Shown piece after piece: positions 9,567 to 19,977 of a DNA stretch of 64,000 nt. Numbering within the stretch: position 1 is the first letter of the stretch; the number at the start of each line of letters is the position of its first letter. The DNA comes from Candidatus Dormiibacterota bacterium. Lineage in GTDB: Bacteria > Chloroflexota > Dormibacteria > Dormibacterales > Dormibacteraceae. Under the pieces are notes generated by a model. That model had not been told where the DNA came from, made no database searches, and saw nothing but the letters and a program-made list of their open reading frames with translations. Both the position numbers and the translations under genes were made by a program. The stretch lies in the NCBI GenBank assembly GCA_035280285.1, contig DATEGC010000077.1, positions 1,027 to 65,026 on the forward strand. Reading direction: 5' to 3'.

Positions 9567-10217
9567 GTGAAACTGGTCGCAGAGTCGTTCGCGTGGCCTT
9601 TTCGCACGCGGGGGCGGTCCAGTTGGGCGCTGGGCCTGATCGCGGTCCTCCTTCTGCCCCTGCTGTTCATCCCATTGCTCGGGTACGCCGTCGCCGCGAC
9701 GCGAGCCGCGGAGGACGATCCCTCGGCCGGACCGCCACCGTGGCACCTCGGCCTGAGACTACTGTCGGACGGAGTCTGGACCTCAATCGCCGTTCTTGTC
9801 ATGGTCCTACCGTTCGCGCTGTTGCTCAACCCGCTCGCCGGCTTGTTGCGCAGCACATCGCTCCAGGAGCCTTACGCGCATGTGGTTGCGCTTTTCATCC
9901 TCGCCCTTCCGTGGGGAGTGGTCGCATTGCTGCACATGCCGCACGCAACTGCGCGGTTTGCCGCCGGCGGCCGACCGAGCGACCTCATCGATGTCCGCGC
10001 ATCACTGCGCGGGGTGCGCCAGGACTTCGTGACCTGGAATGTGGCCGCCGCCGCGATCGTCACCGGTTGGGCCGTCGGGCTCGCGTGCGTCGGTTTGGTC
10101 TGCGTCGGAATCGTGCCCGGCATCTTCTACGCCATCCTTGTGAGCGCACATGCCTCCGCGACGCTCCACCACCCGGATTCGCGTCCACCCGCTGGGCGAC
10201 ACCGCGCTCCTCGCTGA
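9567..10217 (+). CDS. integral membrane protein (DUF4013-like)
   Basis: 216 aa with 4-5 hydrophobic segments; pattern WPF..R....W..G (WPFRTRGRSSWALG) resembles DUF4013. Confidence 0.55.
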   Translation: MKLVAESFAWPFRTRGRSSWALGLIAVLLLPLLFIPLLGYAVAATRAAEDDPSAGPPPWHLGLRLLSDGVWTSIAVLVMVLPFALLLNPLAGLLRSTSLQEPYAHVVALFILALPWGVVALLHMPHATARFAAGGRPSDLIDVRASLRGVRQDFVTWNVAAAAIVTGWAVGLACVGLVCVGIVPGIFYAILVSAHASATLHHPDSRPPAGRHRAPR

Positions 10218-10806
10218 GCTCGGCTCGCGTCTCGACACCGCTGTCAACACCCGCGCGATCGCCCTCGCTGCCGCGCTCAAGAAGAGGCGCGGCGTGCGCC
10301 AGGCGGTGGCGGGGGCGGCCAGCGTCACAGTGCAGTTCGACCCCGACCAGATCACGCACGACCTGCTCGCGGCGTCGATTCGCCGCCTCGCCACCAAGCG
10401 TCCACCGATGGAAGAACCTGGGCGCCTGCATCGCATCCCTGTCGTGTATGACGGGCCCGATCTCGAAGCCGTCGCGTCGGCGCTTCACCTCTCGTCGGAG
10501 CGGGTGAAGGACCTTCACTGCCGCCCGATCTACCGCGTGTTCCTCGTCGGTTTCGTGCCCGGATGGGCGTATCTAGGTCTGCTGCCGGATGAGCTCGTCC
10601 TGCCGCGGCGAGCAGTTCCTCGCACACAGCTGCCTGCCGGTTCGGTAGCCATCGCCGGCCAGATGACGGGCATCTATCCGCTGGCGACGCCCGGAGGATG
10701 GCACCTCATCGGGCGCACGTCGGTGAAGCTCTTCGTGCCGGATTCCGACCCGCCTGCCCTCTTTCGCGCGGGCGACCGGGTGAAGTTCTTTCCGATCAGA
10801 GAATGA
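10150..10806 (+). CDS. pxpB: 5-oxoprolinase subunit B (allophanate hydrolase subunit 1 / KipI family)
   Basis: IRVHPLGDTALLAEL N-terminus, YRVFLVGFVPGWAYLG, IAGQMTGIYPLATPGGWHLIGRT are family hallmarks; ATGA overlap with pxpC. Confidence 0.85.
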   Translation: MPPRRSTTRIRVHPLGDTALLAELGSRLDTAVNTRAIALAAALKKRRGVRQAVAGAASVTVQFDPDQITHDLLAASIRRLATKRPPMEEPGRLHRIPVVYDGPDLEAVASALHLSSERVKDLHCRPIYRVFLVGFVPGWAYLGLLPDELVLPRRAVPRTQLPAGSVAIAGQMTGIYPLATPGGWHLIGRTSVKLFVPDSDPPALFRAGDRVKFFPIRE

Positions 10807-11729
10807 CCGCAGCGCTTCGGGTCAAGGACCGCCCTGGCCTGTTCACCACCATCCAGGACCTGGGCCGGCCGCATGCGATCACGTCTGGCGTGCCGCCTGG
10901 CGGCGCGATGGACCGGTTTGCACATTCGGCGGCGAATCTGATCGTCGGCAATGAGCGGGGCGCCGCCTCGCTCGAATGCACGCTCACGGGGCCTGCGCTT
11001 CTTGCCGAGAGCGACTGCGTGATCGCGATCACGGGGGCGGATTTCGACCCCCACCTGAACGGCGCGCCGGCTCCCATGTGGACGCCGATCGAGCTTCACG
11101 CCGGGGACCAGATGGCGTTCGGCGGCCGGCGAAGGGGCGCGCGCGCGTACATCGCGGTGGCCGGCGGAATCATCGGTGATCGCTGGCTCGGGTCGATGTC
11201 GACCTACGTGCTGGCCGGCCGGGGCGGGATGCACGGCCGGGCCCTGGTCGCGGGGGACCTGATCTCGTGCGGCGAACCCTATGGCTCGCCTGTCGCCGGC
11301 CGCCCCATCGCTCTGTCCCTTTACGACGGCCACACCCTGAAGGTCATCGACGGGCCGCACATCGATCGCCTTCCGCCTCCGGCTCGTGGATCACTCCTGA
11401 GCTCCGTCCTTCACGTCACCCCGAAATCGGACCGCATGGGCTACCGGCTCGAAGGCCCGTCACTGGAGACGGCCGGCGAAGAGCTGCTGTCCTTCGGCCT
11501 GGTCGCGGGGGCGGTGCAGCTGCCTCCCGGTGGGCAGCCGATCTTGCTTATGGCAGATCACCAGACCGCCGGCGGCTACCCCGTCGTAATAAACGTGGTC
11601 AGCGCCTCGATGCCGGTCGCGGCCCAGCTGGCGCCGGGCGACGAGCTGCGTTTCGAGTCGACGACGATCGCGGCCGCCCTCGAGGCACGCACTGCTCAGC
11701 GGGCGGCACTCGAATCCTTGACCAGCTGA
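10803..11729 (+). CDS. pxpC: 5-oxoprolinase subunit C (allophanate hydrolase subunit 2 / KipA family)
   Basis: Start set at ATG 10803 (MTAALRVKDRPGLFTTIQDLGRP); SDRMGYRLEG and TAGGYPVV motifs. Confidence 0.85.
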   Translation: MTAALRVKDRPGLFTTIQDLGRPHAITSGVPPGGAMDRFAHSAANLIVGNERGAASLECTLTGPALLAESDCVIAITGADFDPHLNGAPAPMWTPIELHAGDQMAFGGRRRGARAYIAVAGGIIGDRWLGSMSTYVLAGRGGMHGRALVAGDLISCGEPYGSPVAGRPIALSLYDGHTLKVIDGPHIDRLPPPARGSLLSSVLHVTPKSDRMGYRLEGPSLETAGEELLSFGLVAGAVQLPPGGQPILLMADHQTAGGYPVVINVVSASMPVAAQLAPGDELRFESTTIAAALEARTAQRAALESLTS

Positions 11730-12199
11730 TTGATCCACTCGATGTGCTCGGCGTAATGGTCGTACGTGTTGCCGGCCACCCAGTCGACCACAGGCCGGTC
11801 GTCCGTCTCGCTGCGCGGGTCGCGCGGCTGGTAGTGGTTGTACGGAAGCTGCAGCTCGGCGTCGCTCATCCTGCCGAGCAAGTGCATGAGCGCCGCATGC
11901 GCATCCCGGAAATACGCCAGCGCCTGCTCCGGAGTCTTGTCACGGTGCAGCGCCCATACCGCATCGTTGAGGGCGTCAGTCTCCTCGTCGACACCCGGAA
12001 CTCCCATCGCGGAGCGCCTGTCGCTGCCGTCCAGAAGGGCGAGGAGCGAGTGCTCCCACGCGCCGATGTGAACGAGGTGATCCTTGACCGCCCATCCGTC
12101 TGGCCCCGATATGGACAGCCCGTGCGGGCCGAGCGAATCGACGAGAGCGTTGAGCTCGGCCCAGCCCTTCTCGATTGGCGCGACGACGCTGTTCAACAC
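11696..12199 (-). CDS. ClbS/DfsB-family (DinB-like) four-helix-bundle protein
   Basis: Start set at GTG 12199, preceded by a GGGGGGAG SD one nt after the peroxiredoxin stop. GWAVKDHLVHIGAWEH and NTYDHYAEHIEWI motifs. Confidence 0.75.
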   Translation of the reverse strand: MLNSVVAPIEKGWAELNALVDSLGPHGLSISGPDGWAVKDHLVHIGAWEHSLLALLDGSDRRSAMGVPGVDEETDALNDAVWALHRDKTPEQALAYFRDAHAALMHLLGRMSDAELQLPYNHYQPRDPRSETDDRPVVDWVAGNTYDHYAEHIEWINQLVKDSSAAR

Positions 12200-12200
12200 T

Positions 12201-12683
12201 TCACTCCCCCCTGGCAATCCGCTTCGCCTCTTCGACCACGGCGTCGTAATCGGGCTGCGGCTTCTCGCGCGAGGTGATCCACGTCCACCGGATAACACCG
12301 TTCGAATCAATGATGAAGATCGTGCGGCGGGCCATCCCCGAGTAACCGGGAACGTCGTCGCGACGAACCCCATAGTCGGTCACCATCTTCCGCTCGAAAT
12401 CTCCGATCAGGTCGAACGGGAGTCCGCCCAGCTCTTTGGCGAATGCCTGGTGCGAGAAGACCGAATCGACGCTGATGCCGTAGATGCCGACGCCGTTGGC
12501 AAGCGCGTCGTCGTTCCGTGACCGAAACTCGGTCAGCTCCATCCTTCAACCACCGGTGAAATCGAGGACGTAGAACAGGAAGACGAGGGCGCGGTACTTC
12601 TGGAGGGCGCTCTCCAGAGTCAGCTCCTCTCCGCTCGTGGTCGGCAGCTTGAACTCGGGGGCCTTGTCCCCCACCTGCAGCAC
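12201..12683 (-). CDS. peroxiredoxin (AhpC/TSA, BCP/PrxQ-like) with in-frame TGA at the peroxidatic Cys position; candidate selenoprotein
   Basis: GTG 12683: MLQVGDKAPEFKLPTTSGEELTLESALQKYRALVFLFYVLDFTGG-[TGA 12548..12546]-RMELTEF...ARRTIFIIDSNGVIRW. One frame throughout. The T-x-x-(C/U) motif is intact, and there is no other Cys in the protein. Confidence 0.7.
12519..12535 (-). promoter_or_regulatory. putative bacterial SECIS hairpin
   Basis: UGACCG-AGUUU-CGGUCA begins 11 nt after the UGA; the apical loop, with G in second position, starts 19 nt after the U of the UGA. Confidence 0.4.
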
Positions 12684-12708
12684 GCGAAGAGTCTATTTCT
12701 TCCCTTGC

Positions 12709-13512
12709 CTACTGTTTCTCCAGGATGTACCACCCGGAGCGCGTCGCGCCGGTGATCGCGTAATCGTTCGCGAGTGATCCGCCCAGAGCGCGCCGCAGCG
12801 CGAGGCGCCACTCGTGCGCAAGCCGGGGCTTAGTGCTGCGGAGCCCGACAATGTCGTCAGGCACCTGACATATAAGGACGCGAGCCGTCGAGTCCTCCTG
12901 CACTGGCTCACCCTCGGGGCCGACGGAAAGGATCGCATCGCTCCCCCAATCGCGCAGCTTGTCGGCGTCTGGCTCGGCGAGTTCCCCGGCCGCGGCAGCC
13001 ACCGCGCGATGCGAATCGAGTCGCCATCGAATCAGGAGGCGGTCGGACTCGTCGCCTGTGTTGATGCCGTCGCGCATCTCGCCATAAAAGTCGACCAGGT
13101 ACTCCGGCGCTTCGGCTCCGAGCTTGGTCAGGTTGAAGTACGCGTTGCGCCGGACCAGGGGGTCAGTCGTCCATTCCATGACCTTCACGTCGCGCGCCAG
13201 GCACCAGCGGCGCTGGTGCTGCTTGAGGTCGAAACCAATGCCTCGCGCATCGCTGCCTGGCAGCACTCCCAGGATGTGGGAGTGCATGTGAAGCTCATGT
13301 GGCGGCGCTCCGCCGAGCCAGCCGACGAGTCCACCGATCATGCGGCCCTCCACGAACGCGCCGGCGAGGTAGTTGCCCGAGTGCGCGAGCGCCTTGAGGA
13401 TGTCCGAGCTGATGGGCGGCTCGTCAACCGGCCGTCCCCAGACCACGGCGAACAGCTCCGCCATCCGGCGCACGTCGTCCAGCTCGCTCAGCTCTGCGAT
13501 TTCGGCCTTCAC
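12709..13512 (-). CDS. GNAT-like acetyltransferase-fold protein (COG3375-like)
   Basis: Conserved part starts at VKAEIAELSELDDVRRMAELFAVVWG. HILGVLPGSDARGIGFDLKQHQR and MEWTTDPLVRRNAYFNLTKLG resemble this family. The ORF-track N-terminal extension overlaps pxpA and was rejected; start uncertain (GTG 13512 or ATG 13464). Confidence 0.6.
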   Translation of the reverse strand: MKAEIAELSELDDVRRMAELFAVVWGRPVDEPPISSDILKALAHSGNYLAGAFVEGRMIGGLVGWLGGAPPHELHMHSHILGVLPGSDARGIGFDLKQHQRRWCLARDVKVMEWTTDPLVRRNAYFNLTKLGAEAPEYLVDFYGEMRDGINTGDESDRLLIRWRLDSHRAVAAAAGELAEPDADKLRDWGSDAILSVGPEGEPVQEDSTARVLICQVPDDIVGLRSTKPRLAHEWRLALRRALGGSLANDYAITGATRSGWYILEKQ

Positions 13513-13639
13513 GCGAAGCCCAGGCGCCCGCCTGTCATGAGCGAGGCACCCTGCACGACAAGCCAGCGGCCGGTCAGGCGCGCCGCGCCGACCAGCACGG
13601 GCGTGGACACCAGCTTCAGGGCGAGCGCGCCGGTCGCGC

Positions 13640-14317
13640 TCACCGGACGAGTGGTGCCGTCTCGATCCCGGCGTCGCGGAGCGCCGCGCGCACGGCGGCC
13701 GCCAACTGGCCGGCGCCTTTCGTGTCGCCGTGAACGCAGATCGTGTCGTACCGCCCTGACCGCGCGAGCGCCACCGCCTGCTCAGCGGCCACGGGAGCGG
13801 TGAGAATCGCGCCTGCCTGGCCGCGCGGAGCAAGGCTGCCATCGGGCAGCATCAGGCGGTCGGCGAAGCCTTCCCGGTAGGCGGGGATGCCGGCCCGACC
13901 GGCCGCCGCCTCGATCTCGAACCCCGGCTGGCCCACCACTCCGACGCCATGGGCGCTGGCGACTCGCGCGAGAGCATCAGCCGCGCCGGGATCGCGCTGA
14001 CAGCGGTGATAGAGAGCTCCATGCGGCTTGACATAAGCGATGGGAACGACGGCCGCGAGCCCGGCGATCTGGAAGGCGATCAGCGCCTCGATCTCGTCGG
14101 GACCGATCGACCTGTCGACGCGACCGAAACCTGCGCGGTCGTCATAGCCGGGGTGCCCGCCAACCTCGATCCCCAGCTTGCGACACCGCCACGCGGTCGC
14201 GATCGTGATCGACGCCGACCCCGCGTGGACGGCGCACGCAACGTTCGCGCTGTCGACACTCGCGAGGATCGCCTCGTCCTCATCGGCTCCCTCGCCGATG
14301 TCGGCGTTGACGTTCAT
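13640..14317 (-). CDS. pxpA: 5-oxoprolinase subunit A (LamB/YcsF family)
   Basis: Start set at ATG 14317 (MNVNADIGEG); ACAVHAGSA and VKPHGALY motifs. Confidence 0.85.
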   Translation of the reverse strand: MNVNADIGEGADEDEAILASVDSANVACAVHAGSASITIATAWRCRKLGIEVGGHPGYDDRAGFGRVDRSIGPDEIEALIAFQIAGLAAVVPIAYVKPHGALYHRCQRDPGAADALARVASAHGVGVVGQPGFEIEAAAGRAGIPAYREGFADRLMLPDGSLAPRGQAGAILTAPVAAEQAVALARSGRYDTICVHGDTKGAGQLAAAVRAALRDAGIETAPLVR

Positions 14318-18188: not shown

Positions 18189-19280
18189 CTGCGCCGGATA
18201 TATCTGGACGACGCCGGCTCGGCGCCGGTCCTGCCCGAAGTCCTGAATGCGCTGCGCACCGGCGTGGAGGGCAACCCGTCGAGCCCGCACACGGAAGGCC
18301 GGGACGCTCGACGCGCGCTTGACCAGGCGCGCGACGCTTGCGCCGCCGTCCTCGGGGCGAAGCGCACGGAGATCACGTTCGTGTCCTCCGGCACCGAGGC
18401 GATCAACCTTGCACTGTTCGGAGCCACGCGAACCGGACGGATCGTGACCTGGGCCGCGGAGCATCAAGCGGTCCTCGCCGCGGCTCGGCGCCTGCAGACG
18501 CTTGGGCGCGATGTGCTCATCGCGCGAGTGGACGCAAGCGCGCGGGTGGACGTGGACGCGGTCACGCCCGGCACGGCGCTGGTCTCGGTCGGGCTTGCCA
18601 ACAACGAGGTGGGCACCGTCCAGCCGGTGGCGGACGTCATCCAGCGAGCGCACGACGTGGGAGCGCTCGTGCACGTCGATGCGTGCGCGGGCCCGCAGTG
18701 GGTTCCGATTCCTGCGGGCGCCGACCTCATCTCATTCAGCGGCCACAAGTTGGGCGCCGGCCGCGGAGGTCTCCTCCTGGTGCGCGACGGCGTCAGAATC
18801 GAGCCGCTGCTTTTCGGTGGCCCGCAAGAGTACGGCCGGCGTGCGGGTAACGAGGACGTCGTGTCCGCCGTGGCGATCGCCGCAGCGCTGAATGCTGTGT
18901 CGTCGCCCCGTCGAGAGGCTCACGCGCGCACCGCGGCCCGTCAGAGCGCGGCGCTACGAGTGGCTCTCCTCGAGCTCGGGGCGACGTTGACCGGCGCAGA
19001 GCCCCGACTGCCCAACTTCGCCAGCGGCGCGTTCGTCGACCGGCGCGGCGAGGACATGCTGCTCGCCCTCGACCTTGCGGGCGTCGCTGTGTCTAGCGGT
19101 TCGGCGTGTGCGTCGGGATCGCTCGATCCGTCGCACGTCCTGCTCGCGACGGGCCTGAGCCTCGAGCAGGCGCTAGGCAGCCTGCGCCTGACCACCACAT
19201 ACGAGACTACCGACGAAGACGTTGCGCGCGCCTCTGAAATCCTGCGCACCGTGCTCGGCCGAGTCCCCACCCGTGGCTAG
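18189..19280 (+). CDS. cysteine desulfurase (NifS/IscS-like, class V aminotransferase)
   Basis: SFSGHKLGA (PLP lysine), SSGSACASG (active Cys), GNPSSPH. The conserved N-terminus IYLDDAGSAPV lies upstream of the first canonical start (GTG 18264), so the start is provisionally CTG 18189. Confidence 0.8.
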   Translation: MRRIYLDDAGSAPVLPEVLNALRTGVEGNPSSPHTEGRDARRALDQARDACAAVLGAKRTEITFVSSGTEAINLALFGATRTGRIVTWAAEHQAVLAAARRLQTLGRDVLIARVDASARVDVDAVTPGTALVSVGLANNEVGTVQPVADVIQRAHDVGALVHVDACAGPQWVPIPAGADLISFSGHKLGAGRGGLLLVRDGVRIEPLLFGGPQEYGRRAGNEDVVSAVAIAAALNAVSSPRREAHARTAARQSAALRVALLELGATLTGAEPRLPNFASGAFVDRRGEDMLLALDLAGVAVSSGSACASGSLDPSHVLLATGLSLEQALGSLRLTTTYETTDEDVARASEILRTVLGRVPTRG

Positions 19281-19977
19281 CGTCGAGGAAGAGCTCGCCG
19301 AGCGCCTCGCCCGCGGCGAGGAGGTAGTGCTGGCGACCGTGATCAAGCTCGATGGCGAGCCACCCTCGCAACCTGGCGCCAAGCTCCTGATGACTCGGGG
19401 CGCGCCGGTCGCGGGCACTCTCGGATGCAGCGAGTTCGACTCCGCGGCGATTGCCGACTCGGCCACCATCGCCGAGGCTGGCGCGCCTCAGCTGCGCACC
19501 TACCGCCACGACCTCGGCTCGATCCAGGTTTACCTGGAGCCGTACAAAAAGATGCCGACGCTGGTCGTTTTCGCCGCCACGCCGGTGGCGCGGGCCCTCG
19601 TGCGCTGGGCGCCCGAGCTCGGTTTCCGCCCGCTGCTCGCGGAGGCGGCCGCGGACCTGCCGGCGTCGCTTGCGGGCGACGTGTACGTCATTCACACCAA
19701 CCACGACGCCGAAGATCTGGTGCCGGCCCTCGAGGCGGTGCTGCCGCGCAACCCGCGCTTCATCGGCCTTGTCGGCAGCCGGCGGCACACCGGTCATCAC
19801 CTCGAGGCGCTCCGCGCCAAGGGGGTGCCGGACAGCGTGATCGCGCGCATCCAGAGCCCGGTCGGGCTCGACATCGGGGCGCGGACGGCGCAGGAGATCG
19901 CCCTCTCGATCCTCGCGGGGCTGGTCGCCGTCCGGCATGGCGCGCATGGAGGCTGGAAACAGACAGCCCACACCTGA
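19273..19977 (+). CDS. XdhC/CoxI-family molybdenum-cofactor insertion chaperone
   Basis: GTG 19273 overlaps the desulfurase stop (GTGGCTAG). ATVIKLDGEPPSQPGAKLL, GTLGCSEFD, and a Rossmann-like LVVFAATPVARAL with SPVGLDIGA. Confidence 0.8.
   Translation: MASVEEELAERLARGEEVVLATVIKLDGEPPSQPGAKLLMTRGAPVAGTLGCSEFDSAAIADSATIAEAGAPQLRTYRHDLGSIQVYLEPYKKMPTLVVFAATPVARALVRWAPELGFRPLLAEAAADLPASLAGDVYVIHTNHDAEDLVPALEAVLPRNPRFIGLVGSRRHTGHHLEALRAKGVPDSVIARIQSPVGLDIGARTAQEIALSILAGLVAVRHGAHGGWKQTAHT

Follow-up and report, generated by a model that had tools for sequence, protein, structure and literature searches.

Does the in-frame TGA codon in the peroxiredoxin (Prx) gene at 12201..12683 (minus strand) mark a broken gene, or is it translated, and if so, as which amino acid? 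The gene lies in a stretch of 64,000 nucleotides (nt) on contig DATEGC010000077.1 of a Candidatus Dormiibacterota bacterium, and this whole stretch is what we call the window. The list of open reading frames (ORFs) of the window splits the gene and contains only its two parts, 12546..12683 (45 amino acids, aa) and 12201..12542 (113 aa). We consider it very probable that both parts form one Prx of BCP/PrxQ type with 160 residues, in which the UGA at codon 46 is decoded as selenocysteine (Sec). A Prx-type selenoprotein with a hairpin similar to a selenocysteine insertion sequence (SECIS) had been proposed in an initial annotation of the window, and this proposal is supported by the pairing of the TGA with Cys in alignments, by orthologues with the same TGA, by equal purifying selection on both sides of the codon, by the conservation of the hairpin and by that of the gene order.

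Read on the minus strand from the start codon GTG at 12683, the frame gives VLQVGDKAPEFKLPTTSGEELTLESALQKYRALVFLFYVLDFTGG, then TGA (12548..12546), then RMELTEF and so on up to the stop codon at 12203..12201, which makes 160 codons including the Sec codon. The translation thus agrees with the initial annotation, which had read a complete AhpC/TSA N-terminus from GTG 12683 to the TGA. When Cys is put at the TGA, the joined 160-aa product matches PF00578 (AhpC-TSA) over positions 1-123 of 124 (E = 9.5e-32), with a score of 110 bits against a cutoff of 26. The closest match in PDB is the BCP of Aeropyrum pernix (2cx3, E = 8e-26), which covers residues 2-157 of the joined product. The segment from 12683 to 12201 is one full-length AhpC/TSA peroxiredoxin of BCP/PrxQ type, broken by the TGA alone.

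The position of the TGA in the protein is specific. The predicted Sec codon (12546..12548, minus strand) is residue 46 in the motif T-G-G-U, at the peroxidatic position, and it aligns with Cys49 of 2cx3, which is the peroxidatic Cys of the archaeal enzyme (in FFPAAFSPVCTKEL). The same column is Cys in the nearest full-length homologues (35-42% identical), and distant homologues from other phyla have TGT or TGC there. Aligning the joined product with its Cys homologues therefore puts the TGA on the peroxidatic Cys column, exactly where the T-x-x-C motif had led the initial annotation to place it. In this enzyme family the peroxidatic Cys or Sec lies in a T/S-x-x-C motif at the start of helix alpha-2, and the window protein has such a residue only if its UGA is decoded as Sec or Cys.

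Both halves of the window protein are free of Cys. Across the family, Cys is absent from 124 of 129 complete proteins, and none has a conserved one. Thr43 (position -3) and Arg120 are invariant, the latter in 129 of 129 complete sequences, and the column of Arg120 aligns with the K-R of 2cx3; the absence of Cys from both halves and the conserved downstream Arg had been noticed earlier and are confirmed here. Because the proteins contain no conserved Cys, residue 46 is left as the sole possible redox centre. A resolving Cys, which defines the 2-Cys subtypes and not the whole Prx family, is also missing from the window family. Given this Cys content, the mechanism would be of the 1-Cys/1-Sec type.

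To what extent the TGA is shared can be seen from the relatives. Hundreds of close relatives came up among 5.8 billion proteins searched, and almost all of them had been called as C-terminal fragments of 110-117 aa. At the DNA level, scanning a single genome from each species gave about 50 loci that are 75-87% identical over residues 1-157, almost all of them from Candidatus Dormibacterota metagenome-assembled genomes (MAGs); older entries are labelled Chloroflexi, and a few are probably mis-binned. A metagenome scan with 10-kb flanks, seeded with the most divergent relative (P0010-type), added 80 more loci, all with TGA. The comparison set consists of 135 sequences, namely the window and 134 loci (about 50 species-level MAGs and 80 metagenome contigs), nearly all of which come from Candidatus Dormibacterota or soil metagenomes. 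It turned out that the residue-46 column is TGA in 135 of 135 sequences, with a Cys or Trp codon in none. The set includes two subclades, FTGG-U-R[T/M]EL and FTPG-U-KTEL, which are 57-63% identical in protein, and the TGA is present in both. Besides, all of 131 loci have a GTG or ATG start codon exactly 45 codons 5' of the TGA.

Selection acts on both parts of the gene to nearly the same degree. The pairwise ratio of nonsynonymous to synonymous divergence (dN/dS) is 0.141 for the 44 codons 5' of the TGA and 0.154 for the part 3' of it, at a synonymous divergence (dS) of about 0.93, and the related loci contain neither frameshifts nor additional stops. These values bear on the reading as a pseudogene, or as a gene with a one-base sequencing or assembly error, which the window alone would suggest since the gene is intact there apart from one in-frame stop. 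However, 134 assemblies produced independently in many studies have the same TGA and no further lesion, dN/dS is about 0.15 before and after it, the gene order is conserved, and the sequence divergence of the assemblies excludes a shared systematic artefact. Because 135 independently assembled sequences carry the TGA, a sequencing or assembly error at this codon is very unlikely, and an explanation by decay or error as a whole is hardly credible. Relatives that share the break and carry further disabling mutations were looked for in the 134 loci, and none was found, so that the earlier argument against a decaying pseudogene holds. The retention of the TGA across such divergence, without one TGC or TGT, is best explained by selection for selenocysteine.

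The codons directly after the TGA behave like translated ones. Codon +1 is Arg or Lys, codon +2 is mostly Thr and uses all four synonyms (ACC 78, ACG 20, ACT 12 and ACA 7 among the 135 sequences), and codon +3 is always Glu (GAG 130, GAA 5). Together they agree with the Prx consensus C-[RT]-x-E-L, and such a pattern is what protein-level selection immediately after the UGA would give. That codons +1 to +3 vary in the manner of translated codons means that translation runs on in frame right after the UGA.

The same codons bear on another possibility, namely that the gene is truly split: a 45-aa peptide would end at the UGA, translation would restart at a YUG at codon +4, and the two chains would assemble into a non-catalytic Prx fold. 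The sequence UGAAGGA does hold a Shine-Dalgarno-like AAGGA, 5 nt 5' of the codon +4 YUG, and gene callers predict products of 111-113 aa which start from ATG or TTG. But codon +4 is CTG, not TTG, in 117 of 135 sequences, ATG occurs at codon +2 in only 10 of 135, and 36 of the first 54 loci have neither of these two starts, so a conserved restart codon does not exist. The Shine-Dalgarno-like sequence weakens to AAAGA in the second subclade. A split gene would also leave the Arg/Lys, Thr and Glu of codons +1 to +3, which fit the Prx consensus and vary synonymously as translated codons do, without a reason, and its product would lack a redox residue although the catalytic Thr and Arg are kept; the conserved hairpin described below would be unexplained as well. 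We regard a split gene as highly improbable.

A reassigned genetic code was also considered and rejected, since elsewhere TGA serves as stop more often than any other codon: 27 of the 56 genes in the window end in it, and in 75 of 132 loci it is the stop codon of the Prx gene itself. Three "full-length" JGI proteins have Trp at the site, while their underlying DNA carries TGA, and readthrough with Trp, which these proteins could suggest, was rejected on this ground. The Trp in them apparently is a gene-calling artefact of genetic code 4. These three calls come from short contigs (L084, 326-805, protein P0001; L085, 335-826, P0010; L086, 324-806, P0060).

If the UGA is decoded as Sec, a recoding signal is expected in the mRNA, and a small hairpin follows the codon directly. 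Its conserved core, GACCG-AGUUU-CGGUC (12520..12534, minus strand), begins at a distance of 11 nt from the UGA. In the window an extra U-A pair is added to the core, which gives UGACCG-AGUUU-CGGUCA at 12535..12519; the loop begins 19 nt past the U of the UGA and has G at its second position. The initial annotation had described a 6-bp hairpin starting 11 nt after the UGA. The hairpin itself, the spacing of the loop and the second-position G were found as described, but the distance belongs to the 5-bp core, and the 6-bp form starts 10 nt after the codon.

Among the 134 relatives, all five stem pairs of the core GACCG-AGUU(U/C)-CGGUC are canonical in every sequence, and the loop nucleotides A-G-U-U are invariant in 134 of 134. 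The stem differs in just two cases, by a change of A-U to G.U and by a double change of A-U to U.G, and pairing is kept in both. The double change is found in L134 (848-1318; GUCCG...CGGGC), where it also replaces Thr by Ser and Ser by Ala, as would be expected if the pairing and not the protein sequence were preserved. RNAalifold keeps the core hairpin. The sixth pair (U14-N30), in contrast to the core, forms in only 92 of 134 relatives. A larger SECIS structure was rejected, because this pair is not conserved and a longer fold gains no stability over shuffled sequence (see below). RNAalifold also gives a second, weak 5-bp stem, YUUCA / UGAAG (12544..12561, minus strand, and in relatives), which encloses the UGA in an 8-nt loop CNGGUGGU.

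The geometry of the hairpin is that of bacterial SECIS (bSECIS) elements. According to the bSECIS model (PMC13188914), the loop has 3-9 nt, the stem has 4-16 bp, the distance from the UGA is 16-37 nt, the minimum free energy is at most -7.5 kcal/mol, and one of the first two loop nucleotides is a G, in most cases with G or U after it. The window copy satisfies these rules, including the one on energy: it can be drawn with a 7-bp stem and a 3-nt loop or with a 6-bp stem and a 5-nt loop, at a spacing of 16-17 nt and with -8.4 kcal/mol. The geometry holds for 54 of 54 copies tested. The window element also fits the description of SECIS in a structural paper on SelB (PMC4605307), as a stem of 6-8 bp and a conserved G some 20 nt 3' of the UGA. 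Besides, the hairpin core has no other occurrence in 1.17 Mb of sequence.

Synonymous variation is suppressed over the same region (12516..12554, minus strand), which comprises codons -2 to +10: GGT GGT TGA AGG AYN GAG YTG ACC GAG TTY CGG TCN MGG. In these codons dS is 0.50, compared with 0.92-0.94 outside them. Several codons are fixed (GGT 50 of 50, ACC 49 of 49, GAG 50 of 50, CGG 50 of 50), whereas the same amino acids are written with 3-6 codons elsewhere in the gene. The zone moreover prefers codons which are rare in the remaining gene, such as GGT instead of GGC for Gly, AGG and CGG instead of CGC for Arg, and TTT (42 of 50) instead of TTC for Phe. Such a zone marks an RNA-level constraint that overlaps with the coding sequence. 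Immediately 5' of the UGA, 131 of 135 sequences write Gly as GGT, though GGC is its usual codon; this GGT may reflect a codon-context effect on decoding or be part of the recoding signal. Judged from the sequences, the conservation of the TGA in one column together with the frozen synonymous sites is far beyond chance.

Several observations weigh against Sec at this codon, or reduce what the hairpin can contribute to it. The hairpin is short, with energies from -6.1 to -9.3 kcal/mol, so that only 29 of 54 copies reach the energy cutoff of -7.5 kcal/mol, and its spacing of 16-17 nt is the minimum of the model. As many as 9.6% of random positions in the window, which has a GC content of 66%, pass the bSECIS rules (0.8% at this spacing), and for this reason the hairpin taken by itself is weak evidence. 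When 81 nt of the region are folded, shuffled sequences prove just as stable (z = 0.14), and Rfam, its SECIS families included, has no match at its gathering threshold anywhere in the window and none at E <= 10 in 12350..12750. Covariation support consists of one double substitution and one wobble in a stem that is near-invariant. In view of the background pass rate, the shuffling result and the lack of an Rfam match, the evidential weight is put on conservation and not on fold prediction. In the protein, the Pro of the PxxxTxxC motif is replaced by Val at position -7 family-wide (FYVLDFTGGU); this Pro is also missing in one Cys homologue (P0148). Aerobic bacteria rarely retain selenoproteins, and bacterial selenoproteins mostly belong to anaerobic pathways (2026 review, PMC13188914), while Dormibacterota are described as aerobic, slow-growing soil heterotrophs or oligotrophs. 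The literature searched, including genome papers on Dormibacterota, has no mention of selenium use or selenoproteins in this phylum. Neither the window nor 164 loci (together 1.17 Mb, all of it Prx neighbourhoods) yielded selA, selB, selD or a tRNA-Sec, where ARAGORN was run on the window, L001-L052 and 80 metagenome loci and E. coli SelA, SelB and SelD were used in tblastn; no sel genes lie nearby in the 10-kb flanks of the P0010-type metagenome relatives either. Because Prx neighbourhoods are a small part of each genome, this result is uninformative and does not count as negative evidence.

These observations bring up the question of which residue is inserted. The UGA could be read in frame by another route than canonical Sec insertion, either as Cys with a Sec-like tRNA-Cys(UCA) and a SelB-like factor, or through hairpin-stimulated near-cognate decoding as Cys, Trp or Arg. 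Cys-inserting tRNA systems with a UCA anticodon exist. In-frame decoding and a conserved recoding signal are shown by the data, whereas Sec as the inserted residue is predicted; the DNA searched around the Prx genes contains no Sec machinery, and selenium use is unrecorded in the papers searched on this aerobic phylum; all three would agree with such a route. For the insertion of Cys, however, TGC or TGT would serve as well, yet neither occurs in any of the 135 sequences at a dS of about 0.9. Trp or Arg at the peroxidatic site would leave the enzyme with no redox-active residue, yet the catalytic Thr and Arg are invariant. The geometry of the hairpin and its G-U loop also match SECIS elements of the SelB type. 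In-frame decoding with a residue other than Sec is therefore unlikely in our view. Likewise, there is only a slim chance that the Dormibacterota lack selABCD and decode the UGA by a different route, with a dedicated UCA-anticodon tRNA and its own factor or by hairpin-programmed suppression. If non-canonical decoding were true, the lineage would have a recoding device of a new kind at the catalytic residue of an enzyme.

Under decoding as Sec, which we prefer, the following mechanism can be proposed. During elongation, a SelB-type factor with Sec-tRNA(Sec) would bind the hairpin, bring Sec to the UGA and outcompete release factor 2. In the folded protein, the selenolate at the start of helix alpha-2 would be activated by Thr43 and Arg120 and would reduce peroxides, being itself converted to a selenenic acid. 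Since the proteins have no cysteine for resolution, the enzyme would work as a 1-Cys (here 1-Sec) peroxiredoxin which is recycled by an external thiol reductant.

The family is isolated from other Prx. When 1.84 billion cluster representatives were searched exhaustively, its members fell into a single cluster at 50% identity, and the identity of the nearest full-length relatives outside it did not exceed 42%; among those aligned, Cys occupies the site in every case but one. Two shorter proteins, P0211 (106 aa) and P0263 (113 aa), are 34-38% identical to P0001 and truncated, starting just after the peroxidatic column, and they may be independent Sec-Prx lineages or mere fragments. Six contigs (L011, L015, L022, L032, L038 and L042) of one soil MAG catalogue are labelled as Verrucomicrobiia, Acidoferrum, Sulfotelmatobacter, Eisenbacteria or Baltobacterales. 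They carry a Dormibacterota-type Prx and the same gene order, so they are probably mis-binned rather than products of horizontal transfer.

Public annotation shortens the protein to about 111 aa, for instance in TMC81117.1 ("redoxin domain-containing protein"). The full-length Prx goes unrecognised there, though the recent BSepDB may already list these genes. A second selenoprotein was looked for by scanning for in-frame TGAs with a coding signal on both sides, and besides the Prx this gave only artefacts of antisense frames and gene boundaries.

Around the Prx gene the gene order is conserved as well. Upstream, 25 nt from the Prx start, lies a gene for a 267-aa protein (12709..13512, minus strand), which directly precedes the Prx in 50 of 53 related loci. 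It had been called GNAT-like; there is similarity to Acetyltransf_1, but the score of 19.5 bits is below the cutoff of 20.7, so the label can be kept only in a weak sense. Downstream lies a DUF1706 (ClbS-like)/DinB_2 gene (11696..12199, minus strand; DUF1706 56 bits, DinB_2 43, MDMPI_N 29), which is present in 40 of 53 loci. Its junction with the Prx gene reads TGA-A-GTG, and both this and the ClbS-like assignment agree with the initial annotation. Further genes are a LamB/YcsF gene of the 5-oxoprolinase subunit A type (13640..14317, minus strand; 49 of 53 loci) and the convergent CT_C_D and CT_A_B genes of 5-oxoprolinase B/C type (10150..11729, plus strand; 47 and 49 of 53 loci, respectively), all assigned with Pfam. 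Generally, the order is moaC, a MoCF-biosynthesis gene, LamB/YcsF, the 267-aa gene, Prx, usually DinB/DUF1706, and then the convergent CT_A_B and CT_C_D. The Prx thus sits inside a conserved cluster of the 5-oxoprolinase type with the molybdenum-cofactor genes MoaC and MoCF_biosynth (10150..14317 of the window; L002-L052).

The DinB/DUF1706 protein is weakly similar to mycothiol-dependent enzymes. As a speculation, the neighbourhood with its GNAT-like, DinB/DUF1706 and 5-oxoprolinase genes hints at a link with low-molecular-weight-thiol metabolism. About 6 kb from the Prx, an Aminotran_5 gene (cysteine desulfurase/selenocysteine lyase class) overlaps a gene of the XdhC/CoxI family (18264..19977, plus strand; Pfam labels), and this pair could be related to sulfur or selenium mobilisation or to the maturation of molybdenum hydroxylases.

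The corrected gene model restores a conserved antioxidant enzyme to an abundant uncultured soil phylum, in which hundreds of database entries are now fragments of about 111 aa and a few are "full-length" proteins that carry an artefactual Trp in the catalytic position. If the UGA is Sec, a selenoprotein is retained throughout a clade of slow-growing aerobic bacteria from soil, without reversion to Cys, contrary to the rule for aerobes, and these organisms maintain the Sec machinery and a requirement for selenium. The near-invariant 15-nt hairpin 11 nt after the UGA would be a compact natural SECIS candidate. The type of enzyme is already known, and the locus brings no new principle unless the Sec machinery proves absent.

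Several known systems can be compared with this gene. PrxU of Eubacterium acidaminophilum (NCBIfam NF040737), which has been characterised experimentally, has Sec at the peroxidatic position, as is predicted here, but the window protein reaches only 54.7 bits against the cutoff of 270 and aligns to part of the 233-position model only, so membership in PrxU was rejected. The BCP/thiol peroxidase of A. pernix (2cx3, 2cx4, 4gqc) has the same length, and its Thr/Ser, peroxidatic and Arg columns align with those of the window protein; the archaeal enzyme has Cys49 and the resolving Cys54, whereas the window protein has the predicted Sec and Thr at these places and no Cys anywhere. In its RNA, the gene resembles the SelB-binding hairpins of bSECISearch/fdhF type, with a small hairpin right after the UGA, a G followed by U on the 5' side of the loop, this G about 20 nt away and a stem of 5-8 bp; compared with the consensus bSECIS, the window hairpin stands at the short and weak end, has no Rfam family and is unusually invariant across the clade. 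The closest system is the family of Sec-containing peroxiredoxins listed as "Prx, PF00578 / COG1225 Bcp, TxxU", an established selenoprotein family (PMC9312934, PMC13188914), which bears out the earlier remark that Prx-like selenoproteins are a known class. Compared by description, both have the AhpC/TSA fold and, as predicted for the window family, Sec in place of the peroxidatic Cys in T-x-x-U and a SECIS in the coding sequence directly after the UGA. The window family differs in having Val in place of the motif Pro of PxxxTxxU (V-L-D-F-T-G-G-U), in the isolation of its clade (one cluster at 50% identity, Cys homologues at most 42% identical) with TGA in every member, and in its occurrence in aerobic soil Dormibacterota. 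In conclusion, the best reading of the gene is a predicted selenoprotein that has one catalytic Sec, lacks a resolving Cys and would be a member of the known "Prx, TxxU" class.

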